From IMG/VR virus record IMGVR_UViG_2923350032_000003: a stretch of 55,842 nt of DNA; one strand, 5' to 3'. The first letter of the stretch is position 1, and each line of letters begins with the position of its first letter. Made by a program: the position numbers and the translations under genes. A model generated the notes under the pieces. That model was not told the origin of the DNA, did no database searches, and saw only the letters and a program-made list of their open reading frames with translations. The DNA is from a virus (Duplodnaviria; Heunggongvirae; Uroviricota; Caudoviricetes). This document shows positions 33,258-50,013 of the stretch, piece by piece.

Positions 33258-33286
33258 CAATATAAAAAGCTCGCCGTAGCGAGCTA
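33258..33286 (-). terminator. Intrinsic terminator downstream of TolA-like lipoprotein gene
   Basis: AGCTCGC-TACG-GCGAGCT hairpin followed by TTTTTATA on the - strand. Confidence 0.5.
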
Positions 33287-33410
33287 ATAAAATGTATTTC
33301 TCTGATATTATGTTTATTTGTATTAGCTCAGACTTGACATCACAGGTTTCGTATATAGAACATCATCAAATCTGTCAGTTTGCTATGAATGAGATATAGT
33401 AATTGAAGAG

Positions 33411-33806: not shown

Positions 33807-33956
33807 TTCTTGCTCCTCAATCCATTAAAATCTCAGCAATAGTAGTTGTTACGTCCGCCACTGGCTCAGAGCTGACTATCCGCTAAATTTAGCTCAGTGC
33901 CGTAGCTGTGTCAGAACAAACCTAAGCCGAAACCGTTTATTACAAAACAATAAATA

Positions 33957-34385: not shown

Positions 34386-34414
34386 TTTTCCTCACATATG
34401 TCATATAGTAAAGG

Positions 34415-34444
34415 ATTATATATACCGTTGTTTTGGACGCTCAA
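34415..34444 (-). promoter_or_regulatory. Sigma70-like promoter for the TolA-like lipoprotein genes
   Basis: On - strand TTGAGC, 18-nt spacer, TATAAT, then GAGG ribosome binding site before the ATG at 34385. Confidence 0.4.
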
Positions 34445-34975
34445 ACAGCGAATCAGATCAAATAAAACGCACATTTGTTAACATTTACACAAAGTCTGCG
34501 TGGGATATTCTGAAAGAATATCCATAATGTGGAGAGAATCTATTGAAGTGCATGGTGCCGGGTGCCTCCCGGTGAACAAAATGTTCGTGATACCTGTCGG
34601 CGACAGAAAAGGTTAATGGTATCACCCCACCGCACAGGGGGATTCACCATGCAGGAGTTTTCTTAGCAAACTCACTGCGCGCCCGGCAACTCCCAACCAC
34701 ATAAAATGCGGAGTTTGTGGTATTTATGCATATAACTCGCAGGAATTATCTTAAAAAACTGATGTCGATCCGGATTAAAAAGAAGCAGGTCATCATCAGA
34801 TGACTGGAAAAAAGGAAAACAAAAAATACTCATCATACAGTTTTGATTGCAGGGATGAGCCTGCTATGCACAATATGCAGAATATAAGCAAGATAAAAAT
34901 ATGCAGGCATATTATTTCGGATTTTGTTATTAACACAACCTTTTTAATAATCATTTGGCATACAATAAACCAGCC

Positions 34976-35002
34976 CAAAAAGAACCGCCTAAACAGGCGG
35001 TT
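34976..35002 (-). terminator. Intrinsic terminator-like hairpin in the Q-to-lysis intergenic region
   Basis: AACCGCC-loop-GGCGGTT followed by CTTTTT on the - strand. Confidence 0.45.
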
Positions 35003-35322
35003 GGTCAATACAAAGGATGCTTCGTCTTTATTATAGTAATCTGAGGCGTCGGGTGTCTTGTATCAGACAACATATTGTCCCGCTAAACAGCGAATTACAA
35101 ACCACCCTGCAATGATCTCTCATCTCATTTTATATGAGTTGACGACATCAGGATAACGCATCATCAGCCCCTGCCAAGAAATATCAAAACTCCCGCCAGC
35201 AATGTGTTATCACAATATTGTAAAAAAAACACAGCACCGAAACTATAACTGGTCTCTGTTATAATTTGGAGCAGAAAGACCAGTTGCCCAACTAGCAGCA
35301 TTCTCCCCTGCTTTCCTGACGT

Positions 35323-35349
35323 AAAAAAACCGCATTAAGCGGTTTTTTT
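35323..35349. terminator. Bidirectional intrinsic terminator, candidate tR'-like terminator about 80 nt downstream of Q
   Basis: AAAAAAACCGC-ATTAA-GCGGTTTTTTT; perfect hairpin with A-run and T-run on both sides. Confidence 0.55.
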
Positions 35350-35429
35350 ACGATGTCCATGTCTGCAATCCGCCTCGCGATACAGCTTTGCGAAGCATAG
35401 CAAAATTGAAGCAGTTTATACGTAAGAAA

Positions 35430-35972
35430 TCAAGCCATTTTCTCAGCAAATGATTCACGCATGGGAATATATAGGGCATACTCAGCAACAGCTAACCAAT
35501 TAGCAATCCGTTTTTCGCATGTGCTAAAACACCACTCTGGGTGTGCATCATTTAGCAATTCAGCCATTTTGCGCTTAGTCATCCCCCGCCCTTCATAGCG
35601 TTGCCGGAGAATGCAAATCAATCCTGGATGCTCTGCCAGCACCTCACTTATGACTCGATCAATACATAACGCCTCTGCATCAGTACAATGCGCCAGCCAG
35701 CTCTTTTGCTTGCCGTTGATCATCTCTCGCAAAAACGCTTCCAGCTCAGCTTTCTCTATTCCCGCTTTTTTCATTCTGCGCAGGGCTTCATTAATGGCTG
35801 TTTTCGTCAGTTTTTTGGATGCCAACAACTGATTGAACATATTCCCTGACCTGCCACCGCCAATATACGACCAGCGCCCCCACATACGTAGTTTTCCCTG
35901 AATCCAGACACTTTCCAGCGTGGTGAGGCGAAGGTGTTCTCCGCTTTTTCCTGTATTCGTTGGGTAAATCAT
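35430..35972 (-). CDS. Late gene antiterminator Q-like protein
   Basis: 180 aa; position immediately upstream of the late terminator and lysis genes; weak recalled family resemblance. Confidence 0.45.
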   Translation of the reverse strand: MIYPTNTGKSGEHLRLTTLESVWIQGKLRMWGRWSYIGGGRSGNMFNQLLASKKLTKTAINEALRRMKKAGIEKAELEAFLREMINGKQKSWLAHCTDAEALCIDRVISEVLAEHPGLICILRQRYEGRGMTKRKMAELLNDAHPEWCFSTCEKRIANWLAVAEYALYIPMRESFAEKMA

Positions 35973-36259
35973 AAATGACCTTTCTTTCTCCAGATTTCTT
36001 GTGTGCGAAAAACCCCTTCAGCATGCATCAGGCGCAATTCTTCTTTGGTGTAATCGCTGGTTTTTACCCGCCCGTCGATTAGATCGTGGCATGAGCTACA
36101 GGCTATCGCCGCCTGCATATCGTGTGGTTTTGTCGCTGTTCCGCACGTCCCCGCCAGCCTGTAATGCGCCAGCACAGAGGTTTCGGGATTGTGATTGCAG
36201 TAGCCAGGGATTCTGATCTGGCACATCTGGCCTTTAGCCGCTTTACGTAAATTCACCAT
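35969..36259 (-). CDS. DUF1364-type Cys-rich nin-region protein (YbcO-like)
   Basis: 96 aa with Cys/His cluster; position upstream of Q. Confidence 0.45.
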   Translation of the reverse strand: MVNLRKAAKGQMCQIRIPGYCNHNPETSVLAHYRLAGTCGTATKPHDMQAAIACSSCHDLIDGRVKTSDYTKEELRLMHAEGVFRTQEIWRKKGHL

Positions 36260-36858
36260 TACGCAAACTCCAGTAGTTGTGCGGCCACATTTTCAACTTC
36301 CTCCTGAGAGGAGAATTTACGAAACAGAATCCAGTTCCACAGCACATTCAGTACAGATTTATAAACCTGCTGAAACTCGACTTCGTCCATATTCGCAAAA
36401 GCGATGGATTTTGCCCGACGCCCACGGCTACCGTCCGGATAAATATGCTCGGTGTAAAATCCGGCCTGAATGGTTACCCACTCGCGGAAAGCCTCAAACG
36501 ACTTTAGCAACGCCGTATCCCGGGTTCTACGAGTCGCAACGGTGTTAAGGTATTGCTCTGCGGCATCACTCAGGGCTGGCGTGTGTTCCCGACCAACTGA
36601 TTCGCACAGGTAATCAACGAAACCAGACAGCAGTTCTCGTTCGCGAGGCGTGATCGCCCCACCGACCGGAGTCCAGTAATCGAATCCCAGTTGCAGGAGT
36701 TTGAAAAAACGCTTGTGGAATGCGTAGTTACGCACACGCTTAAAGTCTGCGTGTATCCACTCACCTATTTTGATTTGATGCAGAAAATCGCAACTCTCCG
36801 GCGTCGCCGGGAGAAGTAAACCAGAAGAAGTTTGTTTGACCAGTTGTATATGCGCCAT
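36259..36858 (-). CDS. DUF1367-type nin-region protein (YdfU-like)
   Basis: 199 aa; nin-region position. Confidence 0.4.
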   Translation of the reverse strand: MAHIQLVKQTSSGLLLPATPESCDFLHQIKIGEWIHADFKRVRNYAFHKRFFKLLQLGFDYWTPVGGAITPRERELLSGFVDYLCESVGREHTPALSDAAEQYLNTVATRRTRDTALLKSFEAFREWVTIQAGFYTEHIYPDGSRGRRAKSIAFANMDEVEFQQVYKSVLNVLWNWILFRKFSSQEEVENVAAQLLEFA

Positions 36859-37138
36859 TTCTCAATCTCTCGATGGCGCAGCGCAGCAGATGCCAGTTGT
36901 TCAGGCTGACGAATAAAGTATAAATAAACTGGCTATGGTGTAAAGCCCCACATAGCATGAACAAACACTACATATCAAATAGCTGGTACAAGGATAGAAA
37001 TACGACATTTATTATTAAAAACGATTAGATAAATTACATTTTAATGTTATGCAAAAGTTCTTTTTTATCATAACATTTCAATAAAAGCATTACAGATGCA
37101 ATCATCCCGTCATCATCAATTATTTAAGGTGGTTAAAC

Positions 37139-37225
37139 ATGGAAAATAACAAGTTCGCACATCTCGCTCCTTTTTTATCCGTAATCCTTTTCGCTTGTTG
37201 TTTTATATGGGCATTATTTTTATAA
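37139..37225 (+). CDS. Small hydrophobic peptide (28 aa), putative
   Basis: Hand-translated MENNKFAHLAPFLSVILFACCFIWALFL; AAGGTGG ribosome binding site 6 nt upstream; in an AT-rich intergenic region. Confidence 0.25.
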   Translation: MENNKFAHLAPFLSVILFACCFIWALFL

Positions 37226-37626
37226 AGTAGCCACATGATAAGTTGCTGGAATCATATTTCCCACTCAAGTCATTAACATTTGATAAGATATATCTAAAAG
37301 GACGCCTTTACATTATTTATGTGTATATAATTTATTTATATACACAGTAAAGGCATCCTGGGAAAATATTTATCGTTAAAAAATACATCATAAATAATCA
37401 AGCTGAAATTTCAGAACACAACTAATACACACAATAAGGTTCAGTAACAATAATCTATGTGGACTACATCGAGATTTTTTGATTAAACTTTAATAACTTA
37501 TTCCTAACACACAGAATGCATAAACTAAAAGTAAAACAAATAGTTATACGAAAAACAACCATATTTATTATATCTTCTCCTCTAATCAACATATCAATTA
37601 TGTGTTTCATAACAGCTTGACATAAC

Positions 37627-37663
37627 CCTCAAAAACACGCATTTATAATGCATGTTTTTGAGG
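37627..37663 (+). promoter_or_regulatory. 37-bp palindromic operator (NsrR-box-like) overlapping the promoter of the yeaR-like gene
   Basis: Perfect 11-bp arms cctcaaaaaca / tgtttttgagg flanking cgcatttataatgca; TTGACA at 37617-37622; GGAGG ribosome binding site at 37662-37666. Confidence 0.5.
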
Positions 37664-37671
37664 AGGTGGTT

Positions 37672-38010
37672 ATGACACACAAGAGAATTCCTAAAGATTG
37701 GGTAATCAAACGCTCAACTCCGTTCTTCACAAAAGAGAACGTACCTTCAGCGTTATTAACACATCATAATACAGCAGCAGGTGTTTTTGGGCAGTTGTGC
37801 GTAATGGAAGGCACTGTAACATATTATGGTTTTACTGATGAGAATGCTACTGAACCGGAGATAAAAGTAGTCATTAATGCTGGCGCTTTTGCAACAAGCC
37901 CACCACAATACTGGCACCGTGTTGAACTAAGCGATGATGCTCAGTTTAATATTAACTTTTGGGTCGCTCCAGACTTCTCGGGCGAAAAAGTCTATAGCAC
38001 CAAAAAATAG
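37672..38010 (+). CDS. DUF1971 protein, YeaR-like
   Basis: 112 aa from MTHKRIPKDW...; recalled similarity to E. coli YeaR; strong ribosome binding site. Confidence 0.65.
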   Translation: MTHKRIPKDWVIKRSTPFFTKENVPSALLTHHNTAAGVFGQLCVMEGTVTYYGFTDENATEPEIKVVINAGAFATSPPQYWHRVELSDDAQFNINFWVAPDFSGEKVYSTKK

Positions 38011-38037
38011 ATGATCATATTAAAAATGCTTTAACAG

Positions 38038-38075
38038 TCAGACCCGGCAGGGCTATCCCCGACGGGTCTCATTTT
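38038..38075 (+). terminator. Intrinsic terminator after yeaR-like gene
   Basis: GACCCGGCAGGG...CCCCGACGGGTC stem followed by TCATTTTTGT. Confidence 0.5.
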
Positions 38076-38733
38076 TGTAAATATATTGGTTCTACATTGA
38101 CAGGAGACTTCAACCATAAGAAGTAATCTGAATACTTGAGCAATAAATTTACTTAAGATTAATGAGCGCACCTTGCCGGACAAAGATAAACCAAGGTAAC
38201 ACCTTTTTTCTAGCCAGTATGTAATCAATCAGAAAGCCGCTCCATAAGAACAACAGCAAGACAATAAATTGCCATTACAGCCGCAATAGCTAGCGCACAT
38301 TTGAGAACCAGCACGACAACCTCCTGTATTGGACGTACACCAGTTCTGATAAATATGAGGCTGTCTCATCATTGATTCAATATAACTATTGGGTATAGTT
38401 TCTGTGATTTTGTTCTGTAGAAATGGAACACAACAACCAGTCACCACCAGCACTTCTTTAAATACGCCAAGTCCGACGCAAGCTAACCTTCTAGTCCGCT
38501 TTGAGCGAGGAGCGGACCAAACCCGGCCAACTGACTCTTAAAGGGGCCGCAGGAATTTTTCGTCTGAACTTTCGAAGCTCCTCTCCCTGAAGACAGAAAA
38601 CTTCTGTGTGCTGTGGGAATATTGAATCTTTGCCTTAGATATAAATAATTTTATCCCGCCTGAAGTTTACATTATTTTATTTATCTGTTTTTCTAAATCA
38701 GACTGCACTCCTTACTTAAATCAGGAGCCAGTC

Positions 38734-39933
38734 ATGCCATTTGTTATTTATGTGTTTACTATCAGTGCCTTTGCGCTCGGACTCGCGGAATTTGTCCCCA
38801 TTGGGCTGACAGACGTTATGGCTCAGGGGTTGTGTGTGGGTGTGGAGCAGACCGGGGCAGCGGTTACAACCTATGCACTGGGGGCAACGTTCGCGGCACC
38901 CGTACTGTCTGCGCTGACAGCAAGCTGGAGCCGGAAAAATGTAATGCTTACAACTGCCGTTGTGTTTACTGCCGGTAGTCTGGCGGCCGCGTTTGCAGCC
39001 ACATTACCTCAGCTCCTGTTAGCGCGGTTCATTGCTGGTCTGGGACACGGCCTGTTTCTGGCTGCGGCATCCAGTACCGCAGCTCGTCTTGCTGGACCGG
39101 GTAAAGCAGGCAGAGCGGTGGCTGTGGTATTTGGTGGCTTTACTCTGGCGATGGCAATCGGCGTACCGCTGAGTACATGGTTGGGGGGGGTGGTCTCATG
39201 GCGTCCAGTTCTCGGCGCTATTGCCGCTTTTGGCGCGTTCGGATTCCTTGGACTGTTGTTCGGTATGAAAGATCCCGTACGCAGCGTGCCCGGTGAACAT
39301 AGTGACTCAGCAATGCAGAATATCGGCATGCTGTTTAACCGTAAGTTGCTGGCCGGCGCGCTGGTTACGGTGCTGGCGTATGCAGGCTCGTTTACGGCTT
39401 ACACCTTTATCGCACCTATTCTGACGCAGGTGACAGGGGTTACCGGAGCAACGGTGAGTCTGTTTATGCTGGTTTACGGTATTACAGCTGCGGTAGGTAA
39501 TATTCTTGGTGGGAAACTTACCGACAGCATGGGGGTTAATCGTGCCAATATACTCATCATTAGCGGCATTGTTGTTGTCGTGCTTGGTATGTGGCTGCTG
39601 TCATCCTCACCGGTGAGCATGGGCATTCTGGTTGCGCTGCTGGGTATGGTGACATTTGCCGCAGTGCCGGCACTGCAGGCCCGTCTGATTGGTGTCGCTG
39701 AGCAACATGCTCCTCATGCGCATGGTGTTGCTGCCGGCCTGAATATTGCGGGCTTCAACTCAGGTATAGCGCTGGGATCAGTACTGGGCAGCATTACTAT
39801 AAGCCACGCCGGTATCGTGTATACCGGTATCAGCGGTGCGATTGTTTCTCTGCTCGGCCTGCTGTTGCTGCTTGCACAAATCCGTCGCAGCCACAGTCGT
39901 AAATTTCAACAGGTTAAAATCGTAGGCCAGTAA
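38734..39933 (+). CDS. MFS transporter (12-TM efflux type)
   Basis: 399 aa, hydrophobic throughout with MFS-like loop motifs. Confidence 0.7.
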   Translation: MPFVIYVFTISAFALGLAEFVPIGLTDVMAQGLCVGVEQTGAAVTTYALGATFAAPVLSALTASWSRKNVMLTTAVVFTAGSLAAAFAATLPQLLLARFIAGLGHGLFLAAASSTAARLAGPGKAGRAVAVVFGGFTLAMAIGVPLSTWLGGVVSWRPVLGAIAAFGAFGFLGLLFGMKDPVRSVPGEHSDSAMQNIGMLFNRKLLAGALVTVLAYAGSFTAYTFIAPILTQVTGVTGATVSLFMLVYGITAAVGNILGGKLTDSMGVNRANILIISGIVVVVLGMWLLSSSPVSMGILVALLGMVTFAAVPALQARLIGVAEQHAPHAHGVAAGLNIAGFNSGIALGSVLGSITISHAGIVYTGISGAIVSLLGLLLLLAQIRRSHSRKFQQVKIVGQ

Positions 39934-39944
39934 AGGGAGGTTAT

Positions 39945-40637
39945 ATGCTTACCCGTGAAAATATGCTTAATGGCACATTTGTCAGGGTGCATGAAGCGCT
40001 GCTCCCGGCGAATATGCTCTGGGACGCTGAAAAAATACGCGCATCAATGAACTCTACTCTGGAGGAGCGCCCGACGGGTGCTCCTGTCTGGATATTTGCC
40101 TACGGGTCATTGATGTGGAATCCCGTGCTGGCGATTGAAGAAATGCAACGGGCCCGTCTGAAAGGATGGCAGCGCAGTTTCTGCATTCGTTTGATATCCG
40201 GACGAGCGACTCCTGATGTCCCCGGCAGGATGTTATCGCTCGACGAAGGTGGAATTACCGAAGGTATTGCGTTCAGACTGCCGGAATCGACTCTTATTAA
40301 TGAGCTGGAAATTGTCTGGACGCGCGAGATGATAACCGGTCTTTACCGTCCGGTCTGGGCAGACGTTTCGCTAGGAAACGGTGAGGAAATTCAGGCGCTG
40401 GCTTTCGTATCAGACAGACTGCATCCGCATTATGAACAGGACAATCTTACAGCGACCGTAGCGTTGAGCATCGCATCTGCCCGTGGAGACATTGGCACGA
40501 ATGCAGATTATGTATGGAAACTGCAGGCCACTCTGGGTGCGTTGGGAATACGGGATGATTACGTGAGTGAACTGGCCCTTGCTCTGCATGAGTCTCCCTG
40601 TAACGATAAACTTCATCAGCGAGGCGCTTCACTATGA
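39945..40637 (+). CDS. ChaC-like gamma-glutamylcyclotransferase
   Basis: 230 aa; WIFAYGSLMWNP motif and overall resemblance to E. coli ChaC. Confidence 0.7.
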   Translation: MLTRENMLNGTFVRVHEALLPANMLWDAEKIRASMNSTLEERPTGAPVWIFAYGSLMWNPVLAIEEMQRARLKGWQRSFCIRLISGRATPDVPGRMLSLDEGGITEGIAFRLPESTLINELEIVWTREMITGLYRPVWADVSLGNGEEIQALAFVSDRLHPHYEQDNLTATVALSIASARGDIGTNADYVWKLQATLGALGIRDDYVSELALALHESPCNDKLHQRGASL

Positions 40638-41515
40638 GCCATCTGAGCCATCTGCGAACGTTTCTTGAGGCCTATCGCTCTGGCTCCTTTTCAAAGGCGG
40701 CAGAACTACTGGGCATCACTCAGCCCGCGGCGTCACAGCATATCCAGTCTCTTGAGACTCTGGTTGGTAAGCGTCTGTTTATCAGGCAGGCCAGAGGCGT
40801 GACGGCAACCGAAGCTGCGGATGAGCTTGCCCGCTCAGTTTCACCCTTCATTGATGGTCTGGAAGAAAAGCTGTCCTCTTTCCGGTCAGGCTCTGTACGC
40901 GGGGGAACAATTAATCTGGCAGGACCGCCAGATTTTATTCATTCCCGGCTTGGGACAGTAATGGCTCCACTAATGAAGGAGGGGTATCGCCTACGCTTTC
41001 ATACCGGCAATAAGCAACGTATTTATTCCCTTTTGCATGACGGGAGCGCCGATCTCGCTGTTACCGCATCTATGCCTGATGACCGTCTGTACGGCTATGC
41101 ACATCTACTGACTGAACGCATGCTCCTTGTTCATGCTCCCGCCATGTCAGAGATCATCGGATCAGAACCTGGTGCTGAAACGCTTGCCTCATTACCGCTG
41201 ATTGCTTATGACGAAGAGTTGCCACTGATTAGAGCGCTCTGGGCCTCCATGTTTCAGAGAGCCCCTGAGATGCAGGCTACATTCACCATTCCGGATTTAC
41301 GTATTATCCGCGACTTGGTCTGTGACGGCCACGGGTGGACAGTGCTGCCGGATTATCACTGTGACAATGACCTGAAAAGTGGTCGCCTGATTTCAGTGAC
41401 ACCTGCAGACCTCGCTCCGACTAATCATCTTTATCTGGTCTGGAACAAAAGGACGGCTAATAACAGCCGAACCGCCTATGTTCGGGATTACATTCTTAAA
41501 ACGTTTCCGCGTTGA
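40634..41515 (+). CDS. LysR-family transcriptional regulator
   Basis: 293 aa; N-terminal HTH (FSKAAELLGITQPAASQHIQSLE); start overlaps chaC-like stop. Confidence 0.8.
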   Translation: MSHLSHLRTFLEAYRSGSFSKAAELLGITQPAASQHIQSLETLVGKRLFIRQARGVTATEAADELARSVSPFIDGLEEKLSSFRSGSVRGGTINLAGPPDFIHSRLGTVMAPLMKEGYRLRFHTGNKQRIYSLLHDGSADLAVTASMPDDRLYGYAHLLTERMLLVHAPAMSEIIGSEPGAETLASLPLIAYDEELPLIRALWASMFQRAPEMQATFTIPDLRIIRDLVCDGHGWTVLPDYHCDNDLKSGRLISVTPADLAPTNHLYLVWNKRTANNSRTAYVRDYILKTFPR

Positions 41516-41560
41516 TGTTTGAAACGGATGATTGGAGATGCGTATCATAAGTTACGTATG

Positions 41561-41600
41561 TCCGCTTCTGGCACAAAGCAGACGCCCACTCTCACGCGAA
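41561..41600. repeat. Copy A of an about 36-bp direct repeat (core TGGCACAAAGC-GAC-CCAC)
   Basis: Matches 45225-45260 at about 28 of 36 positions. Confidence 0.4.
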
Positions 41601-41645
41601 TGCTTTGCCCTTGACTTGCCAACAACCGTATCGCTTGCTCCGCAA

Positions 41646-42938
41646 CTATGGTTTTTTATTAGAATCTTCGCCACTAAATAAATTATAATAAATTGATTTT
41701 ATTAGATATCTATCAGAATCTATATGGTCAGCACGAGTAGCATGCTCTAATGTTTCAAATGCTAGGGTTTGTGCGGCTTCAGCAAAAATTCCAGGCCAAC
41801 CCTTACTCAGCATCGACAGTCCTTTAAGTACCCTTATCTGAATTTCCCTCATACTGGCACCATCGCGCGCAACAGGTGAGAAAAAGTCTTCAAGTAGATC
41901 GTTATTCTGAAGTGGTGCAACATGTACAGAAGGATATTTCACTTCTATTTCATCAGATTTATTCTGCGCGTAAGCGGAAAGTATACGTACACCTCTGCCA
42001 ATGACATCAATGGCGGTTCCAGGATCGTTCACTGCGGGGGAAAGGGCTCGGCAGGCTATTTCGGCCATGACGCTAAGACAAAATCGGGGGTCCTGAGCAA
42101 ATGAACGTACATCCGAGACAATAATCGTCTCAAGTAAATCGGTGCTGATTGATGACTCCTGGCCCTGACTCAGGTACAAAACTGGCGTGGACGGATGTAT
42201 GAAACTGCCCGGCTGCGCCACGAGGTATACATGACGGGGATCATTGGTCAGCAGCTTGCTGAGTTTCACCATATCAACATATTCAACATAGCCAATCTTT
42301 TTCGGATAAACTGCAACCGTTCCTTTCGGCTGTTCATTGTTCTCAAGCCATGGATATCCGCCGAGACAGGGATTTCTTGCTCTCGCAATAAATGTTTCGA
42401 TGGCCGCCTGTTCTACTTTTGCCGTTGTCTCACCAACCCTCCCCAGAGAGGTCAAATGCTGTATCCAGCGAAGCAATGTGATGAGGATTAAGGCAATGAC
42501 AACCAGTGTTACAATGAATAAAATGACTCTCCCCCTTTCTCCATAAGCTCCCATATTGAGGGCAATAATCCCTACCAGACTGAAGAGAAAAGAACCGATG
42601 AAGGTGGCCAGTACATTTTGTGTGGTGACGTCTTCAACAACTAAACGAGTAGCTCTGGGAGTCACATTAGTAGTGGCTGAACCGTAGGCTGTGACCATGA
42701 TGCTCAGCGAAAATGTGGTCACTGCCAGCATACTCGATGCCAGTATGTTCAGAATGTTATCGACTGCTTCCGCACCAACCTTCACGGAAACCGACTCAGG
42801 TATCATTGATTTAAAAAGAATTGATAAAAGGGCCGTTATTATTGCGACAATTGCGAATAACGTTGCCCTGAACCATAGTTTTTTAAATGTCTGCTTCAGC
42901 ATCCATTTCCAGCGTGAAATCATTCTGCATTCCCTCAT
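41646..42938 (-). CDS. DUF2254-like membrane protein
   Basis: 430 aa; N-terminal multi-TM region plus C-terminal soluble domain. Confidence 0.5.
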   Translation of the reverse strand: MRECRMISRWKWMLKQTFKKLWFRATLFAIVAIITALLSILFKSMIPESVSVKVGAEAVDNILNILASSMLAVTTFSLSIMVTAYGSATTNVTPRATRLVVEDVTTQNVLATFIGSFLFSLVGIIALNMGAYGERGRVILFIVTLVVIALILITLLRWIQHLTSLGRVGETTAKVEQAAIETFIARARNPCLGGYPWLENNEQPKGTVAVYPKKIGYVEYVDMVKLSKLLTNDPRHVYLVAQPGSFIHPSTPVLYLSQGQESSISTDLLETIIVSDVRSFAQDPRFCLSVMAEIACRALSPAVNDPGTAIDVIGRGVRILSAYAQNKSDEIEVKYPSVHVAPLQNNDLLEDFFSPVARDGASMREIQIRVLKGLSMLSKGWPGIFAEAAQTLAFETLEHATRADHIDSDRYLIKSIYYNLFSGEDSNKKP

Positions 42939-42986
42939 ATTGCAGCCGGGATAAATAAATGCCGCCTCTGTGGCGGCATGTTGCTG

Positions 42987-44990
42987 TTAACGAACCAGAT
43001 GCAGGAAGTGCAGGTGTTTTTCGTACTGGTCCAGTATGTCATTAATCAGCTGTTCCTGATTCCAGCCCATTACATCATAATTTTGGCCGCCCTCTTTGAG
43101 ATAGACTTCAGCGCGATAATATCGATGTTGTTCACTCTGCTGCTCATCATTATCCAGCGCAGCGAGCGCGAAGGTCGGTGAGTTATACCCGCGAAGCCTC
43201 ACTTCATATATATAATTCAGCTCGTTGCCCAAATCGACTTCAAGGCGAATACGATCCTCGGCGGCGTCACTGATGTGGCTTATCGTTCCCTGCTTGTTAA
43301 GTTCCTCCTGAACCAGCGTCATGGCGGGTTGGATAATGTCGTCCATAAAACGTTTCACAAGAGAGCGCTTCGGCAAATACGCGATATTGCGTAACCTTCT
43401 CTGCCAGGGAATTGGGTTACGTGCAGCCGTAGGAGCAATAGTCGCCATGCTAAGGCTTTCACGCTTGGTCAAATCCCGACGCAGGGCTTTTAACAGTCCG
43501 TATATGGATATTAATAAGATAACTGAGAAGGGCAATGCACTCGCTATCGTTACGGTTTGCAACGCACTCAGCCCCCCTGCGATCAGCAGGGCAATAGCAA
43601 CAACGCCCATGAGCGATGCCCAGAAAATTCGCTGCCAGACGGGCGTGTTTGCCACCCCACCTGATGCCAGAGTATCCACAACCATTGCCCCCGAATCAGC
43701 AGACGTTACAAAGAAGACGATGACCATCGCCATTGCAATGAATGACAGCACGGAAGAGAACGGGAAATGCTCCAGGAAATTAAACAGGGCAAGCGCAACA
43801 TCCTGCTGAACGGTATTGGCGAGGTCAGTGGCGCCCTGGTTCATGATGAGATAGATGGCGCTGTTTCCAAACACCGTCATCCACATGAGCGTAAAGCCGG
43901 CGGGAACAAACAACACGCCAGTCACGAACTCACGAATTGTCCTGCCGCGGGAAACGCGTGCAATGAACATACCTACAAACGGCGACCATGAAAGCCACCA
44001 TCCCCAGTATAATAATGTCCAGCCCCCCAGCCAGTTGCTCGACTTGGGTTCATACGCGTAAAGGTTGAACGTTTTACTCACCAGTTCCGACAGATAACCA
44101 CCCGTATTTTCCACAAATGACTTCAGCAGAAGCACAGTGGGACCCAGGCACAAGACCAGCGCCAGGAGCAACACCGCCAGGCCCAGATTAAGCTCAGACA
44201 GGATGCGTATTCCCTTGTCCAGGCCGGACACCACCGAAATCGTCGCTAACCCCGTGATGACCACGATCAAAATGACCTGTACCGTTTCATTGATGGGCAC
44301 GCCGAAAAGATGGTTCAAACCGGCATTCACCTGCAATACACCGTAACCCAGCGATGTTGCAACGCCAAAGACAGTGCCTATCACGGCGAAGATATCAACC
44401 GCGTGGCCTATAGGCCCGTAAATGCGATCGCCGATAATGGGATAGAGCGCAGAACGCAGCGTTAAAGGCAGACCGTGACGGTAACTGAAAAAGGCCAGAA
44501 TCAGCGCCACGATGGCATAAATTGCCCATGCGTGCAGACCCCAGTGGAAGAACGTCAGGCGCATGGCTTCCTTCGCTGCCGCAACGGTCTCTGGAGTGCC
44601 GACAGGTGGCGAAAGATAATGCATCACAGGTTCGGCAACGCCAAAGAACATCAGGCCGATCCCCATCCCTGCCGAAAAAAGCATCGCGAACCAGGAGTGG
44701 TAGCTGAAATCAGGCTGCGCATGGTCTGGGCCCAGCTTTATATCACCGTAACGTGAGAGTCCAAGGAACGTGACGCTCAGTAAAATCAGGGCCACAGCAA
44801 GTATGTAGAACCAGCTGGCATTCGTGAAGATTTGTTGCTGAAGTAGTTTAAAATTTTTGTCGGCGACATCCGGGAATACGGCGGCAAAGGCGACAAGAAG
44901 GAAAATTAGCAAAGCAGATGTAAAGAATACCGCTTTGTTAATCTGGCTTGTAGACTTCTTTGGGGTTGTATCATTTTCACTCATAATCAT
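42987..44990 (-). CDS. BCCT-family transporter (BetT-like)
   Basis: 667 aa; BCCT-type TM topology and long cytoplasmic C-terminal tail as in recalled BetT. Confidence 0.75.
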   Translation of the reverse strand: MIMSENDTTPKKSTSQINKAVFFTSALLIFLLVAFAAVFPDVADKNFKLLQQQIFTNASWFYILAVALILLSVTFLGLSRYGDIKLGPDHAQPDFSYHSWFAMLFSAGMGIGLMFFGVAEPVMHYLSPPVGTPETVAAAKEAMRLTFFHWGLHAWAIYAIVALILAFFSYRHGLPLTLRSALYPIIGDRIYGPIGHAVDIFAVIGTVFGVATSLGYGVLQVNAGLNHLFGVPINETVQVILIVVITGLATISVVSGLDKGIRILSELNLGLAVLLLALVLCLGPTVLLLKSFVENTGGYLSELVSKTFNLYAYEPKSSNWLGGWTLLYWGWWLSWSPFVGMFIARVSRGRTIREFVTGVLFVPAGFTLMWMTVFGNSAIYLIMNQGATDLANTVQQDVALALFNFLEHFPFSSVLSFIAMAMVIVFFVTSADSGAMVVDTLASGGVANTPVWQRIFWASLMGVVAIALLIAGGLSALQTVTIASALPFSVILLISIYGLLKALRRDLTKRESLSMATIAPTAARNPIPWQRRLRNIAYLPKRSLVKRFMDDIIQPAMTLVQEELNKQGTISHISDAAEDRIRLEVDLGNELNYIYEVRLRGYNSPTFALAALDNDEQQSEQHRYYRAEVYLKEGGQNYDVMGWNQEQLINDILDQYEKHLHFLHLVR

Positions 44991-45224
44991 TTATTCCATT
45001 AATTAAATCCGCACTGGATAGAAGGTACTACCTCTCACAGAGTAGCAAAGTTCAACTGGCTATGCGGGGTTAATCGGAATGCATGGTGGAATGAGTGCCG
45101 ATACAAATCATCCTATATTCTAAGGAGTTTTAAGTTACTCAGCCTGCCAATTACTGGGGCATTTAATTTGTATGATCTGTATCAAAGCTGGGATATAAGT
45201 TAAGTGAAGTATATTAGGCACGAA

Positions 45225-45260
45225 TTACCAGCGTCTGCTCTTGGCACAAAGCGGACAACC
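45225..45260. repeat. Copy B of the about 36-bp direct repeat
   Basis: Matches 41561-41600; lies about 240 bp upstream of the BCCT gene start. Confidence 0.4.
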
Positions 45261-45324
45261 ACGCTAGCTCTACCCTGTGCCACAAAATGTCAATTTGCAT
45301 CTGAACTAATGCACTTTAATCTCG

Positions 45325-45747
45325 TCACTTCAATAAATACCGAACATCCCCCTGATAAAACGACAATATGCGCTGCATAACTTCGCTCTTCCGGCACTCG
45401 CGACAGATTATGTTTAGGCGACTGTCGTAGCGACGTATTTCTCCGTCAGGTAATGACCAGATAAGGTCCGGATCAACCACAACCGGTTTCTTCAGCTTTG
45501 CCCTCGATAATTTTTTGCGGGCATTTTGCCAGTCTTTACGAGCCTGTTCAGACGGGAACAACCCGTAGCCAGAATTGTATACATCGCCACTGGCAACCAG
45601 CTCTCTGGCCAGAACGCTCATCAGATATCTTGTTGCCCCAGTTTTAGCTTCCAGTTGTCGTAACGTCTCGCGCCCACTCTGGCGTACGAGTTCAAGAACC
45701 TGCCCTTTAATTTTTTCCCGCTCTTCTTGTGTAAAAACTTTTGCCAC
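45325..45747 (-). CDS. Hypothetical protein in the replication module (possible winged-HTH)
   Basis: 140 aa, follows the ydaU-like gene where K-12 Rac has DnaC-like ydaV; no Walker motif. Confidence 0.35.
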   Translation of the reverse strand: MAKVFTQEEREKIKGQVLELVRQSGRETLRQLEAKTGATRYLMSVLARELVASGDVYNSGYGLFPSEQARKDWQNARKKLSRAKLKKPVVVDPDLIWSLPDGEIRRYDSRLNIICRECRKSEVMQRILSFYQGDVRYLLK

Positions 45748-45787
45748 AAGCCCTCCTGAAAATTACCTCATGACCAGAAATTAACAC

Positions 45788-46864
45788 TTACCCCCTGAAG
45801 CCCGGCGGAATTTCGTTATCCGGTTCAGAAATATGATTCACACAACGCTGGTTGTTCGTGCCGCTTACCGGGAGCAACCAGGGGTTCTCAAAATTCCGGT
45901 CCGGTCCAAAAAACGTCGTCGCTCGCTGAACAAATTCCGTTCCCGTTTTCCCGGTAGCCGCCAAGTATCTTGCGTAACGCCTCACGCCATCCAGCATGGC
46001 CTCTGGTGGCACCCCCTCGCGTAATCTGGCCTTCCAGGCACTGAAAGCGGATTTCTTCGGGTTTGCCCCAGCACGCAACGGGTACTCCCGCCAGACCTGT
46101 TCGAACACATCCGGATAATCCACTCGTCCCACAGACTGCCCGGTGTTTTCCGGGACTACCCGATCGGCTTCCCGCTGAATGGCGGAATCGGCTTCAGGCT
46201 GCTGCAGTTGGTGTGATTGCTCCGCCCTTGCGGTCATCACCTGCTGCACAGCGCCCGAATCGGCTTTCAGCGCATACGCTGAATCGGCTTCCGGTGTCGT
46301 GCCTGCTGGCTGACCAAGATTGACGGTCTGAACATCCCCTGCCTGGTTCGTGGCGTTTTTTACGCCATGGACCATAGTGTTTTGATCTTCTTGATCTGTA
46401 TCTTTATCTGTATCTTTATCTGTCGTGACTCGTCGTGACATGTGCGTGACATTTCGTGACGCGCCGTGACAATCGCCATTTTGTTCCCGCTTTCTTTCCC
46501 TCTCTCGCTGCGCCCTCTTGCGCTCTGCAGGAGATTTTGCGATTTGCGAAATATTGCCGTTGTCCTCTTTAAGCACCTGGCGTTTTTCCCATCCAGTGAT
46601 TAAATCACCATCAAGTACCCGCCCCTGCATCGTCTGCAAAATTGAATCAATTACCTCTTCTGTCACGTCGAGCGCACTTGCCAAATCTTCTGTCGTGACA
46701 TCAATGTGACCTCGCGTGACATTTCGTGACGCGCTCACCAGGAGGTGGATATACACTGCCATCACTGTTGCAATTGGCTGTCCTGACACCCTGGCAATTG
46801 TTCGCCACTTAGGGTCATTTGGCATGTCATGCCATAATCTGAGCCAGGCGTTAGCCATACTCAC
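45788..46864 (-). CDS. YdaU-like replication initiation protein
   Basis: 358 aa; internal acidic repeat TDKDTDKDTD; contains two iteron-like arrays in its coding sequence. Confidence 0.5.
   Translation of the reverse strand: MSMANAWLRLWHDMPNDPKWRTIARVSGQPIATVMAVYIHLLVSASRNVTRGHIDVTTEDLASALDVTEEVIDSILQTMQGRVLDGDLITGWEKRQVLKEDNGNISQIAKSPAERKRAQRERERKREQNGDCHGASRNVTHMSRRVTTDKDTDKDTDQEDQNTMVHGVKNATNQAGDVQTVNLGQPAGTTPEADSAYALKADSGAVQQVMTARAEQSHQLQQPEADSAIQREADRVVPENTGQSVGRVDYPDVFEQVWREYPLRAGANPKKSAFSAWKARLREGVPPEAMLDGVRRYARYLAATGKTGTEFVQRATTFFGPDRNFENPWLLPVSGTNNQRCVNHISEPDNEIPPGFRG
46391..46470. repeat. Iteron-like array 1 inside the ydaU-like gene (tandem atctgtatcttt repeats, then five CGTGAC at about 10-bp spacing)
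   Basis: tgtcgtgac / tcgtcgtgaca / tgtgcgtgac / atttcgtgac / gcgccgtgac. Confidence 0.5.
46691..46730. repeat. Iteron-like array 2 inside the ydaU-like gene (four GTGAC at 10-bp spacing)
   Basis: tgtcgtgaca / tcaatgtgac / ctcgcgtgac / atttcgtgac. Confidence 0.5.
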
Positions 46865-46929
46865 CTCTTTTGATACCGAATCTTTTTACTCACAAATTGC
46901 CGGAAGTGATCCGGTATGAATATTGCGAG

Positions 46930-47355
46930 TCAATGCACAGCCACAATATTTCCTGCAGGGCCACCACGATTCATCTGGTTGAAACCAGCGATCGCCACTG
47001 CGACAAAATCATCAGCGTCTCTCACCAGTCGTTCCCGCGTCTCCACTAGTTCCCGAAAATAGGCTGAGCTATGGCTGCGCATTCGGGCCACCAGCAGAGG
47101 TGGCATTGCTTTTTCGATAGCTGGTAACAACGCCTGAATTTTTTCAACTGCATCAGGGGTGTCTTTCTCTACCCAGCGGAAAATTTTCTGGGTATTGCGA
47201 GCCAGGGCTTCCGGATGGCTGTCGTCATACAGTTCTGGGAACGTCATACCCAGTTCAAAATAAGCCCTGGTTATTTCAGCTGCCGGAACTTTTTCACCGT
47301 CCGGATGCGCCCAGGCATTCATCGCCATGCGGATGTGTTCATGCTTGATTTTCAT
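46930..47355 (-). CDS. ydaT: YdaT-family protein (cII-like position)
   Basis: 141 aa, starts MKIKHEHI as I recall K-12 YdaT; downstream of Cro-like gene. Confidence 0.55.
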   Translation of the reverse strand: MKIKHEHIRMAMNAWAHPDGEKVPAAEITRAYFELGMTFPELYDDSHPEALARNTQKIFRWVEKDTPDAVEKIQALLPAIEKAMPPLLVARMRSHSSAYFRELVETRERLVRDADDFVAVAIAGFNQMNRGGPAGNIVAVH

Positions 47356-47620
47356 GAATCAAGCTCCTAGAAAGTGGTTGTGTTAACATTTTGGTATCTT
47401 CCAGCTCGGGCCAAATATTCATCCAATCAAAAGGCCTTAGTTGCTGACGTGTAACTTCACCATTACTGGCTCGCTCAATAAGGACACATAACGATGCCCC
47501 TAACACTTGACCTTTACTCAATGCCTTTCTTAGATAACCGATGCTGGTACCACACTCGCATGCAAACATACGCTGTTCATCTGACGAAAGAGAATTGAGA
47601 AATATTCTTAATTCTTCCAT
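47339..47620 (-). CDS. Cro-like HTH protein (YdaS-like position)
   Basis: 93 aa, divergent from repressor gene. Confidence 0.45.
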   Translation of the reverse strand: MEELRIFLNSLSSDEQRMFACECGTSIGYLRKALSKGQVLGASLCVLIERASNGEVTRQQLRPFDWMNIWPELEDTKMLTQPLSRSLIHENQA

Positions 47621-47650
47621 AGCTACTCCTTAGTAAACACAGCAAAGAAA

Positions 47651-47724
47651 ACCCATAGGTAAACAAAAGTCAATACCCACAGGTTGTTTACCTTGCAGTA
47701 ATCGCATCTATTATTTACCTATGG
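47651..47724. promoter_or_regulatory. Operator-like repeats (oR side) between the cro-like gene and racR
   Basis: acccataggtaaac, tacccacaggttgtttacc and tttacctatgg; the last overlaps the racR start codon. Confidence 0.45.
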
Positions 47725-48140
47725 ACAAATATGAATTTAGACGACAGCAACTCATCAAAATTCGTGATGAGAAATGCGATGGTAAAGCGGTTAACGTGGC
47801 CAGAAAGATCGGGCGCGAGCCTTCTTATGTATCAAGAATGTTGTACCCAGAGGGGAAAAAGGGAAAAAAACGGATCGCTGATGATATGGTGGAGATTATC
47901 GAAGAGTCCTTTGGGTTACCCCGGGGATGGATGGATGGTATCGTTTCATCATCAACGAACACAGCCTCCAGTTATGAAACAAGGGTTCTAACGCCACGAC
48001 AACGTATTTTTTTAGATCTCTTAGACGAACTGCCAGAAAGTGAAGCGGATAACTTATTAAAAACTCTTGAAGAGAAAAAACAGTATTACAATATGATCTA
48101 CGAAGAAATCCGTAAAAAGAAAGCACAAAACGCATCATAG
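47721..48140 (+). CDS. racR: Prophage repressor (RacR-like, HTH)
   Basis: 139 aa with HTH (KAVNVARKIGREPSYVSRML); divergent from the cro-like gene and flanked by operator repeats. Confidence 0.5.
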   Translation: MDKYEFRRQQLIKIRDEKCDGKAVNVARKIGREPSYVSRMLYPEGKKGKKRIADDMVEIIEESFGLPRGWMDGIVSSSTNTASSYETRVLTPRQRIFLDLLDELPESEADNLLKTLEEKKQYYNMIYEEIRKKKAQNAS

Positions 48141-48181
48141 CTCACCAAACAACTAGTCACCAGTTAAGACACCGCAAAAAG

Positions 48182-48220
48182 TTACCCATGGGTATTTACT
48201 TTTTAAATACCTATGGGTAT
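48182..48220. promoter_or_regulatory. Operator-like palindromes (oL side) downstream of racR, upstream of ydaG
   Basis: ttacccatgggtattt and aaatacctatgggtat; same TACC-ATGGGTA core as the oR-side repeats. Confidence 0.45.
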
Positions 48221-48394
48221 CCTTCTTTTCATACCAACCCACCCCGCCCCACAGAATGCAGGGCAATACTTCGAGTTACCAGGCAGTGGTCAGGGGTTAA
48301 GTAGCCAGCCCGAGGCGTAAGAACATGACGGCGGGATTCAAATTTTGCAGTGCAGCAGTTAGTTCCGCCACCCGGCGTTAAGGGGAGAGATAAG

Positions 48395-48529
48395 ATGGTG
48401 CATTACGAAGTAGTTCAGTATTTGATGGATTGTTGCGGTATCACTTACAACCAGGCTGTGCAGGCTTTACGCAGCAACGACTGGGATCTCTGGCAGGCAG
48501 AAGTCGCTATACGTAGCAACAAGATGTGA
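48395..48529 (+). CDS. ydaG: YdaG (44 aa)
   Basis: Hand-translated MVHYEVVQYLMDCCGITYNQAVQALRSNDWDLWQAEVAIRSNKM; below ORF-track cutoff. Confidence 0.65.
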   Translation: MVHYEVVQYLMDCCGITYNQAVQALRSNDWDLWQAEVAIRSNKM

Positions 48530-48539
48530 GATTCGCAAA

Positions 48540-48695
48540 ATGCAAAAAATCGACCTCGGCAACAACGAATCCCTGGTGTGCGGCGTGTTCCCCAACCAGG
48601 ATGGAACGTTCACTGCCATGACGTATACCAAAAGCAAAACATTTAAAACCGAAACTGGTGCGCGCCGATGGTTGGAGAAGCACACAGTAAGCTAA
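48540..48695 (+). CDS. ydaF: YdaF (51 aa)
   Basis: Hand-translated MQKIDLGNNESLVCGVFPNQDGTFTAMTYTKSKTFKTETGARRWLEKHTVS; below ORF-track cutoff. Confidence 0.65.
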   Translation: MQKIDLGNNESLVCGVFPNQDGTFTAMTYTKSKTFKTETGARRWLEKHTVS

Positions 48696-49180
48696 CGATT
48701 AAAACGTCTACTCCTGCTGTTCCAGAATAACTTCATAAAATGGGAGTATTTTTCGGTGACGAGATAATAAGAACAGTTTGCGCTATCACTCTGATGTTGA
48801 ATGATGCCCTTCCGTTCTAATTTTTTCATAACCGGGTTACGGCAAGGAGAAGTGATAATAAGATTTCCTGTTTTAAGGAAATCTTTAAATACAGCGATTT
48901 CTTTCTCAGATAAACGAAGCAATACTCGTTGCTCTGGTAGTAATGAATAATGCTTTTGAATATGTGCTCGCAATCTTGAGAAGGAAATGGCGACCACGAA
49001 AGAAAAGGCAAAAACGATAATCTGAAAGAGCCAAGGTATTTCAGTATAAGCATTGAATGCGACAGTAAACTCTTTCGGTATCAGCCAGAGAGTGAGACCA
49101 AAAATGATAATCGTATACATAAGTCTTTCGAGTGGCTCGTTAGCAAAAAGTTTCAACAATGGAGTAAATACATCCAACAT
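48692..49180 (-). CDS. sieB: Superinfection exclusion protein B
   Basis: 162 aa from MLDVFTPLLKLFANE...; two TM helices. Confidence 0.8.
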   Translation of the reverse strand: MLDVFTPLLKLFANEPLERLMYTIIIFGLTLWLIPKEFTVAFNAYTEIPWLFQIIVFAFSFVVAISFSRLRAHIQKHYSLLPEQRVLLRLSEKEIAVFKDFLKTGNLIITSPCRNPVMKKLERKGIIQHQSDSANCSYYLVTEKYSHFMKLFWNSRSRRFNR

Positions 49181-49621
49181 ATCAATAACTCTCAACTGTA
49201 AGGGTATTGAAATGTTAACACAAGCTCTCGCTGTAGGGGTATAGCCGAGACCACCGAAGCCCGGAGGTGGTGAAATAAAACCGGGCACAACACGAAGGCG
49301 CATTTCCGATATCCATAAAGAGTCGGTCTTGTCTGTTAAATTTAAATGGTGGGAGTGCGCCTCCGGTTGTAAATAACGACATTGCTGTGTGTAGTCCTGG
49401 CGGCATCAGTTTTTTTCTTGAAGTTCGGCTGATGTCCGCCCTTTTTAAAGTGAATTTTGTGATGCGGTGAATGCGGCTAAGCGCACGTGGCACAGTTAAA
49501 AGTCATGTCAGTCCTTATTGGTTTGGGTGGGAAAGCCGACTGTAATTGTTAACTGGTTGCAGTCACCTGGAGGCACCAGACACCGCATCAACAAAGTTCA
49601 TTTGTAAAAATGGAGATAATT

Positions 49622-49843
49622 ATGATTGCACATCACTTCGGAACTGATGAAATACCACGTCAGTGTGTGACTCCTGGCGATTATGTTCTTCATGAAGGCC
49701 GGACATATATTGCCTCGGCAAACAATATTAAAAAGCGAAAACTATATATTCGTAACCTGACCACAAAAACATTCATTACTGACCGCATGATTAAAGTCTT
49801 CCTCGGTCGTGATGGTTTACCTGTAAAGGCGGAGTCATGGTGA
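49622..49843 (+). CDS. kilR: Killing protein KilR (FtsZ inhibitor)
   Basis: 73 aa from [14 protein letters not shown]... Confidence 0.8.
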
Positions 49844-50013
49844 TGACTAAGAAAATAAAATGTGCTTACCACCTTTGCAAAAAAGACGTTGAAGAAAGCA
49901 AAGCTATTGAAAGAATGCTTCACTTCATGCACGGGATTTTATCAAAAGACGAACCGAGAAAATATTGCAGTGAAGCTTGTGCCGAAAAAGACCAGATGGC
50001 ACATGAACTTTAA
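49843..50013 (+). CDS. ydaE: YdaE (56 aa, Cys-rich)
   Basis: Hand-translated [56 protein letters not shown]; start overlaps kilR stop. Confidence 0.7.
   Translation: MTKKIKCAYHLCKKDVEESKAIERMLHFMHGILSKDEPRKYCSEACAEKDQMAHEL

Follow-up and report, generated by a model that had tools for sequence, protein, structure and literature searches.

The 55,842-nucleotide viral sequence IMGVR_UViG_2923350032_000003 (Caudoviricetes), referred to at its full length as the window, was analyzed for two arrays of a short repeat that lie inside a replication initiator gene and may form a replication origin. The window carries a Rac-like Escherichia coli prophage, and a 1.8-kb segment around the arrays is 100% identical to several complete E. 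coli chromosomes. Parts of this segment, which comprises the initiator gene, a DUF977 gene and their flanks, were matched in 4164 of 5426 complete E. coli genomes, with at least 80% of it matched in 1541. The initiator gene and the DNA elements of interest within it are as follows.

45788 to 46858, minus strand: initiator gene, encoding 356 aa from ATG 46858 or 358 aa from GTG 46864.
46424 to 46470, minus strand: array B, proposed core iterons, five GTCACG on the coding strand, encoding CHGASRNVTHMSRRVT in the disordered linker.
46662 to 46730, minus strand: array A, proposed auxiliary iterons, within the N-domain coding region (residues 45-57 and 66-68).
46376 to 46423, minus strand: AT-rich tract, purine-rich on the coding strand and adjoining array B, proposed DNA-unwinding element.

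The start codon is likely ATG 46858, as annotated by PGAP, and not GTG 46864; residue numbers given here follow the 358-aa reading from 46864.

The five CGTGAC motifs at roughly 10-bp spacing that a preliminary description had reported for array B are present, with plus-strand starts at 46424, 46434, 46445, 46455 and 46465 (spacings of 10, 11, 10 and 10 bp); on the coding strand, the GTCACG spacings read 10, 10, 11 and 10 bp. At the window background of 3.4e-4 sites per bp, the Poisson probability of five sites in a given 47-bp stretch is about 9e-12; multiplication by the number of positions in the window raises it to about 5e-7. The window was also shuffled 300 times with dinucleotide content preserved, and in no shuffle did any 50 bp contain more than three sites. 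In total the window holds 28 CGTGAC/GTCACG sites, nine of them within 307 bp. Array A lies 130-200 bp into the initiator gene. Four more CGTGAC copies had been reported at 46691-46730; a second array is indeed found there, but it is slightly less perfect than stated, with exact plus-strand copies at 46694, 46715 and 46725 and a one-mismatch TGTGAC at 46705. The corresponding coding-strand starts are 46730, 46720 and 46699 for GTCACG and 46710 for GTCACA. An inverted copy at 46662-46667 had been missed. Iteron-type origins are expected to hold at least three direct, helix-phased repeats, and here five copies were found in array B together with a second array of four. DnaA boxes were not enriched and none occurs in the origin segment, an Rfam scan of 44000-50000 matched no family, and a promoter scan gave a single consensus-level match, inside an array, which is below the number expected by chance.

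Repeats within a coding sequence could be the by-product of a repeated or low-complexity peptide (VT..H..SR, TDKD) or of slippage in a tolerant linker. The arrays do encode segments that are disordered or modeled at low confidence, and the linker contains other repeats (EADSA) as well as natural deletions. However, the 10-11 bp period, which cannot be read as a peptide repeat, places the hexamer in all three reading frames (2, 0, 1, 0 in array A; 1, 2, 0, 2, 0 in array B), and the residues decoded from GTCACG vary with its position (SR, VT, (G)H or (C)H). In a set of about 27 family members, arrayed hexamers fall in the three frames 67, 60 and 53 times. This use of all three frames indicates that selection acts on the DNA, with the recurring peptide VT..H..SR best seen as a by-product of the DNA repeat, and it largely refutes the peptide explanation. 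The reservation attached to the preliminary description, that the repeats might be explained solely by the coding repeat, was therefore not borne out. Two observations on relatives, given below, bear on the same question: the hexamer is kept between hosts while the encoded peptide is not in register, and the same base changes occur together in arrays 230 bp apart. An origin of the arrays in the peptide is hardly credible given these patterns.

In the case of Pseudomonas phage phita81A, a 300-aa protein is 69.5% identical to the initiator over its first 140 residues, and its C-terminus is unrelated. Its gene carries four GTCACG at 10, 10 and 11 bp plus an inverted copy at the array A position, and four GTCACG at exactly 10 bp, followed by AGATAAAGATACAGAAGAAGAG, at the array B position. 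Between phita81A and E. coli the hexamers and their spacing align in register, whereas the linker peptides of the two proteins do not. Relatives down to about 30% N-domain identity retain the linker array and the AT-rich tract. The position of array B was constant in all relatives examined, with varying spacers, 3-9 copies and the AT-rich tract always directly after it. Array A, including the inverted copy, is kept in many relatives at roughly 50% N-domain identity or more; some have 2-6 copies or no exact inverted copy.

The repeat itself was also compared between lineages. Loci L319-L323 were retrieved by protein similarity only and so provide an unbiased test of co-variation. GTCACG was present in both arrays of L321 and L322 (Yersinia) and L323 (Serratia), and GTAACG in both arrays of L319 and L320. 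In a Manatee Spring phage, likewise retrieved by protein similarity and with a 47% identical N-domain, both arrays consist of GAACGC at the same spacing, with the same CTAGATAAAGAAGAAG tract. Concerted change in arrays 230 bp apart is the prediction of a shared, evolving binding protein. The co-variation of repeat and cognate initiator that is typical of iterons was thus observed in GTCACG, GTAACG and GAACGC lineages, and initiators with a different N-domain have different repeats. Shigella phage 75/02 Stx encodes a C-domain that is 63% identical, together with a different N-domain, and has no GTCACG arrays. The arrays appear from these comparisons to travel with the initiator N-domain and not with the C-domain, YdaT or Cro. 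YdaT-like and Cro-like proteins were considered as array binders and rejected, as their genes are missing from most array-bearing loci outside enterobacteria, which leaves the initiator as the partner of the arrays.

Several side observations concern array length and spacing. Locus L099 has nine array B hexamers at alternating 10- and 11-bp spacings, and the close homologs P0123 and P0142 have an in-frame 7-residue (21-bp) insertion in array A. If iterons were gained as 10+11-bp pairs, the frame of the initiator would be preserved and the mixture of 10- and 11-bp spacings accounted for. The distances between the arrays (209, 219, 229, 240 and 249 bp) seem to come in 10-bp steps, but this is probably due to degenerate end copies that went uncounted, and the pattern was not used.

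Viral contigs were scanned for four GTCACG at 10-bp spacing, a pattern of 24 fixed bases for which the chance expectation is about zero. The scan returned 104 stretches, of which 80 loci were kept, 73 of them with variable spacers. Although these loci were found by the hexamer pattern alone, 38 of the 80 had an N-domain homolog (29-100% identity) directly upstream on the same strand, and in these 38 the array was followed by a polypurine tract of the ACAGATAAAGA, ACAGAGAAGAG or CCTAGAGAAGAGG type. Most remaining loci had the array in the middle of an ORF of 260-500 aa, with a basic KRxxRER stretch just before it. Among 20 further array-bearing ORFs tested, 9-10 matched other PHROG families (replication initiators or primosomal proteins), and no link between the other array-bearing ORFs and the initiator N-domain family emerged from iterative HMM searches. 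A similar scan of genome contigs for four GTCACG (L190-L269) mostly returned simple repeats, 56 of the 80 listed loci being (GTCAC)n pentamer microsatellites or perfect decamer tandem repeats. A cross-phylum distribution drawn from that scan was dropped for this reason, and the matches serve as a caution for origin searches based on the motif alone.

The AT-rich tract abuts array B. The tandem repeat encoding TDKDTDKDTD that had been reported is present, as 2.9 copies of the 12-mer TCTTTATCTGTA at 46389-46423 (95% matches; Tandem Repeats Finder). The 40-bp window 46380-46419, which abuts the last iteron, has a GC content of 0.25, the lowest of the initiator gene, and the 45-bp tract next to array B has 25-30% GC. 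In relatives, the last iteron is followed by runs of the (A)CAGATAAAGA or GAGAAGAG type. An AT-rich region directly downstream of the iterons and inside the initiator gene, as in the lambda origin, is therefore present here and conserved in relatives. Two GATC (Dam) sites lie in the tract at 46384 and 46393, 9 bp apart; they occur in the E. coli version only.

Within the tract, the 20-nt sequence ATAAAGATACAGATAAAGAT (46400-46419) is identical in K-12 ydaU (L002 5512-5620), the initiators being otherwise unrelated. In K-12 ydaU, which encodes a third type of N-domain, TGTTCAAACA occurs at the corresponding position twice in direct and once in inverted orientation, followed by the identical 20-nt AT-rich stretch; together these are a candidate core of the Rac origin oriJ. 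The shared 20 nt are likely a module-exchange joint. This could be extended to the view that the linker DNA, AT tract and repeats alike, is mainly a recombination joint that shuffles N- and C-terminal initiator modules and has no role in replication. The identity of the 20-nt segment in non-homologous initiators agrees with such a view, as does the Citrobacter hybrid P0236, in which the switch from this N-domain to a YdaU-type C-domain falls exactly on the TDTD tract. However, hexamer phasing, co-variation with the N-domain and the second array are left unexplained. Lambdoid O genes also exchange modules at the origin, so that a joint is compatible with origin function, and a joint without a replication role is highly improbable.

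The arrays could also be initiator-binding or other regulatory sites, acting in autoregulation or as an intragenic transcriptional roadblock, with the true origin elsewhere. Array A and its inverted copy lie only 130-200 bp into the gene, inverted partial iterons of iteron plasmids act in autorepression, and unwinding at the AT tract is inferred only. On the other hand, array B is always directly followed by the AT-rich, purine-rich tract that holds the GC minimum of the gene, an arrangement shared with proven origins such as ori-lambda, and the region examined showed no further iteron-like cluster. Purely regulatory arrays are thus unlikely, if less so than a mere joint.

Taken together, these results suggest that 46344-46730 is quite probably the vegetative replication origin of this Rac-like lambdoid prophage, embedded in its own initiator gene. 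The resemblance to lambda raised in the preliminary description, with origin iterons inside the initiator gene, is strengthened by the use of three frames, by conservation beyond the linker peptide, by the joint change of both arrays and by the adjoining GC minimum.

The protein encoded around these elements was examined with profile searches and an AlphaFold2 model built on 30 homologs. Its recognizable parts are listed here.

46595 to 46852, minus strand: N-terminal winged-helix-like domain, residues 5-90, helices and a beta-hairpin (pLDDT 70-86).
46481 to 46531, minus strand: basic helix AERKRAQRERERKREQ, residues 112-128, directly before array B, a helix in the AlphaFold2 model.
45860 to 46129, minus strand: C-terminal helical domain, residues 246-335, DnaT homolog (pLDDT about 90).
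45791 to 45841, minus strand: C-terminal tail VNHISEPDNEIPPGFRG, 17 residues, nearly identical to the ends of host DnaT and K-12 YdaU.

The best PHROG match was phrog_3729, "replication initiation protein" (E 1e-256), with weaker matches to DnaD-like, primosomal and replisome-organizer families (phrog_4880 and phrog_5968, "replisome organizer", are weak at E 3e-6 and 6e-4). Close homologs carry the NCBI name "phage replisome organizer". No Pfam family matched the initiator at E <= 0.01. The gene had been called ydaU-like, which does not hold at the level of sequence: neither DUF1376 (PF07120) nor any other Pfam family is matched, and the BLASTP alignment with K-12 YdaU covers the last 19 residues and the KDTDKD linker only. 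The initiator is better described, from these searches, as a positional analogue of YdaU with a different N-domain and a DnaT-like C-domain. PF09681 (Phage_rep_org_N) matched one of 84 array-bearing ORFs (E 0.0015) and did not match the present initiator.

Overall, the model consists of two small domains within a mostly disordered chain. Disorder at residues 130-245 spans array B, the AT tract and the EADSA repeats, and a dip in pLDDT at residues 50-54 lies inside the array A coding segment (residues 45-57). Both arrays thus coincide with segments that the model predicts, partly at low confidence, to be a loop or disordered, and would lie in DNA under weak coding constraint. The N-terminal winged-helix domain is the presumed iteron-recognition module. 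Residues R115 and R120 of the basic helix are nearly invariant among the 84 array-bearing ORFs, and this helix is the sole nearly invariant protein feature across all array-bearing initiator ORFs. For the C-terminal domain, the profile of alignment A2 matched the DnaT chains 6aep (E 1e-7), 2ru8 and 9zbt (E 1.5e-5 and 6e-5) over about 99 positions. PF17948 (DnaT C-terminal) was matched by the alignment profile only and not by the single sequence, and NCBIfam DnaT matched the initiator tail at E 7e-4, below the family cut-off. By profile comparison, the C-terminal domain is homologous to the single-stranded DNA (ssDNA)-binding C-terminal domain of DnaT.

The tail is a second link to DnaT, whose last 17 residues in E. 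coli are VNTVSEPDSQIPPGFRG. The host dnaT gene (L310 979-1518) lies directly upstream of dnaC. Distant homologs with an IP(P/E/D)GFR(G/S) tail are followed by an IstB/DnaC-like gene, and homologs with a differing tail by a Phage_lambda_P gene; the lambda-P-type counterpart of the DnaT-type tail reads '..GSHDQNLREPLD..'. ORFs ending in IPPGFRG-stop were surveyed in 80 viral loci, 76 of them evaluable, as the other four contigs end within 600 bp. The next gene was DnaC-like in 36 of the 76, DUF977 in 34, another gene in 6 and lambda-P-like in none. As the tail type tracks the type of downstream loader gene, the tail probably recruits a DnaC-type loader, and the prophage would rely on host DnaC.

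The gene directly downstream of the initiator is one such DUF977 gene.

45325 to 45747, minus strand: DUF977/Ren-like gene, 140 aa (PF06163, E 2e-28; phrog_142).

As had been reported, this next gene encodes a 140-aa protein without a Walker motif at the position held by ydaV in K-12 Rac. It had further been called a non-DnaC partner gene, which can be taken to mean a new helicase-loading partner replacing DnaC. The protein matches PF06163 with 99.4 bits against a cut-off of 22.1, and phrog_142, "Ren-like exclusion protein", at E 5e-45. Lambda Ren belongs to the same PHROG, and the two proteins have the C-terminal motif N(I/L)xx(R/K)ECRxSxxMxR(I/V)L in common. No Pfam or NCBIfam match to a DnaC/IstB-type loader and no GxxxxGK[ST] motif were found in it. 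A set of 80 viral loci served as sister loci, their N-domain being identical across the 102 residues used in the search. The DUF977 gene directly follows the initiator in 74 of these, as it does in 34 of the 76 evaluable IPPGFRG loci, and sequence inspection suggests an N-terminal winged-helix-like segment, both of which could fit a loader. However, four of the 80 sister loci have the order initiator, DnaC-like gene (80% identical to YdaV), DUF1627, DUF977, as in 75/02 Stx. The presence of DUF977 downstream even where a DnaC-like gene exists suggests that its place is that of "ren" and that it does not stand in for the loader. Its grouping with lambda Ren, which is dispensable for lambda replication, and the lack of an ATPase motif or loader-family match point the same way. 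DUF977 as a replacement loader is accordingly quite doubtful, and the gene, which lies outside the proposed origin, is better regarded as a lambda Ren relative that co-occurs with DnaC-like genes in sister loci.

Two broader and more tentative readings, linked to each other, can be offered; they are possible but not the likelier case. In the first, SEPDxxIPPGFRG, common to host DnaT, YdaU and the present initiator, might be a portable docking signal for DnaC-type loaders. In the second, hexamer arrays at one per helical turn with a polypurine AT tract after them in the linker-coding DNA might mark a broad class of phage origins. Such a class would include several initiator families whose N-domains show no detectable resemblance; this would imply that the reading head is conserved, and the invariant basic helix may be that part. 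If true, the docking signal would answer how DnaT recruits DnaB-DnaC, described as unknown in a 2026 structural paper (PMC13377028), and would explain an initiator without its own loader. The DnaT-type tail is for this reason the most interesting by-product of the analysis and a direct handle on an open question of replication restart.

A mechanism consistent with the origin at 46344-46730 can be proposed. After derepression, transcription of the Cro/YdaT-like operon would produce the initiator. Its N-terminal winged-helix domain, possibly together with the basic helix, would bind the hexamers on the same side of the double helix. A further cluster would be provided 230 bp upstream by array A, which could form a loop with array B or aid autoregulation. 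The nucleoprotein complex would then melt the AT tract, aided by transcription through the site, and the DnaT-like C-terminal domain would engage the single strand. Finally, the DnaT-identical tail would bring in DnaB-DnaC. Host DnaC is proposed here because the phage DnaC-like gene, found in a minority of sister loci, is missing. In this scheme, binding of the initiator to the hexamers, opening of the AT tract, contact of the DnaT-like domain with ssDNA and the use of host DnaB-DnaC are putative steps, as is replication from this particular copy.

Several points weigh against the origin interpretation. Initiator binding, unwinding and replication at 46344-46730 are inferred. For type-specific iterons it is unusual that GTCACG arrays also lie in initiator ORFs in which no N-domain similarity is detectable. 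Genomic matches to four GTCACG are largely simple repeats in diverse bacteria, unrelated to phage initiators, and the breadth of the class is easily overstated. When the full AlphaFold2 model was compared with the PDB by Foldseek, no match was significant. An acidic third helix is predicted in the winged-helix domain, the presumed reader of the hexamer. No phage-encoded helicase loader is found in this prophage, which carries cargo genes, so that this copy may be inactive even where the element serves as an origin in the family. No report on this initiator, iteron or origin was found in the searchable literature, and publications on oriJ, DUF977, Stx phage replication units and replisome organizer origins yielded none on the present initiator or repeat.

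Other features of the linker and of the neighborhood are as follows.

46344 to 46374, no strand assigned: hairpin-capable inverted repeat from a terminator-like scan, just past the AT tract.
46163 to 46294, minus strand: four AATCGGCTT repeats encoding (E/K)ADS in the disordered linker.
46930 to 47620, minus strand: upstream early-right-type operon genes, Cro-like (47620 to 47339) and YdaT/CII-like (47355 to 46930).

The DNA folding z-score of the palindrome is -2.75 here and -5.3 in Shigella phage 75/02 Stx, relative to shuffled controls. One compensatory T:A to A:T exchange, altering two amino acids, distinguishes the two versions, and more distant homologs keep the palindrome only in part. 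It may be a third origin element. The natural variants P0124 and P0139 have in-frame deletions ending at the (E/K)ADS repeats. The Cro-like and YdaT/CII-like genes, being upstream in the same operon, would deliver transcription into the initiator gene and the origin. A RacR-like repressor gene is located at 47721-48140.

The N-domain also occurs outside this arrangement, in HNH nuclease fusions of about 178 aa (L312 399-935 and L313 3786-4322; P0068, P0086). No GTCACG arrays were found in the fusion genes examined. The L312 fusion gene retains three GAACGC at 10-bp spacing at the array A position and lies directly upstream of a DUF1376 initiator gene, which has its own ACGGACGTTCA repeats followed by a ACAGATACAGATACAGAGAAAGATAAAG tract, and of a DnaB helicase gene.

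In the identical locus of strain 13KWH46, the minus strand reads Cro-like regulator, YdaT-family protein, 356-aa "hypothetical protein", DUF977 protein and then cargo, and on the other side lie the repressor, sieB, kilR, recET, xis, int and ttcA. By this comparison, the prophage sits at the same site as K-12 Rac and is laid out like it, but with a different replication module. The cargo of the prophage, at about 33000-45000 of the window (L001 4473-11785), lies between the DUF977 gene and the DUF1367/DUF1364/DUF1133 genes and consists of a BCCT transporter, DUF2254, a LysR regulator, gamma-glutamylcyclotransferase, an MFS transporter and DUF1971; trkG occupies this place in K-12 Rac.

The position of the origin is where amplification of the prophage would start after induction, and it bears on escape replication of the neighboring cargo (the BCCT transporter and others). 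The cargo is a few kb from the putative origin, and in-situ replication would amplify it. PGAP labels the initiator gene of the identical locus a "hypothetical protein" and leaves the origin unmarked, despite the segment being widespread in E. coli genomes. The pair of origin and initiator is compact and testable, and apparently uses host DnaC. Origins in many phages could be annotated by a simple signature within the initiator gene, phased hexamers and then a polypurine AT tract. Lambdoid intragenic origins are already known; the present iteron and origin are without description in the searchable literature.

The locus was compared with its closest known systems. The replisome organizers of Gram-positive phages (SPP1 G38P and the replication proteins of lactococcal TP901-1 and Tuc2009) have an N-terminal winged-helix origin-binding domain and a direct-repeat origin within the initiator gene. 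Weak PHROG matches and the NCBI name "phage replisome organizer" may connect the present initiator to this group, whereas it lacks a PF09681 match and has a DnaT-like C-terminal domain and another repeat sequence. The likeness to DnaT lies in a C-terminal domain that is homologous by profile (E 1e-7), in the nearly identical last 17 residues and in gene order, as dnaC follows dnaT and a DnaC-like gene follows the initiator in relatives. However, DnaT lacks an N-domain for sequence-specific DNA binding and works through PriA and PriB at abandoned forks, whereas here the DnaT-like domain is fused to a predicted origin-recognition module.

K-12 Rac shares the chromosomal site (ttcA side), the flanking recET, kilR and sieB genes, the early-operon position, the C-terminal tail and the 20-nt AT-rich linker segment. 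It differs in that the K-12 initiator is a DUF1376 protein with TGTTCAAACA repeats and a DnaC-like ydaV, its N- and C-domains being unrelated to those described here. Use of the K-12 Rac origin (oriJ) in plasmids is cited in PMC11014345; for the present origin, no experimental record was found in the literature.

As in lambda O (P22, phi80 and 434 are also named), the proposed origin is situated in the linker-coding portion of the initiator gene, and direct repeats, which bind the initiator in lambda and putatively do so here, are followed by an AT-rich stretch in the direction of rightward transcription. Ori-lambda shows the same order, with four iterons ahead of a 39-bp AT-rich region whose coding strand is rich in purines (PMC6022878). 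Both systems appear to have a type-specific N-terminal domain, a C-terminal part that deals with the helicase loader and a Ren-family gene among the downstream genes. In contrast to lambda, the initiator here is not Phage_rep_O, having no Pfam match and PHROG matches to other initiator families, and 6-bp direct cores recur every 10-11 bp, compared to 18-bp palindromes about 20 bp apart in lambda. A second array in the N-domain coding region, a DnaT-like C-domain and the lack of a P gene are further differences. The locus is therefore most likely a lambda-style origin in a non-lambda initiator, one that appears to combine a replisome-organizer-like N-domain with a DnaT-like C-domain.

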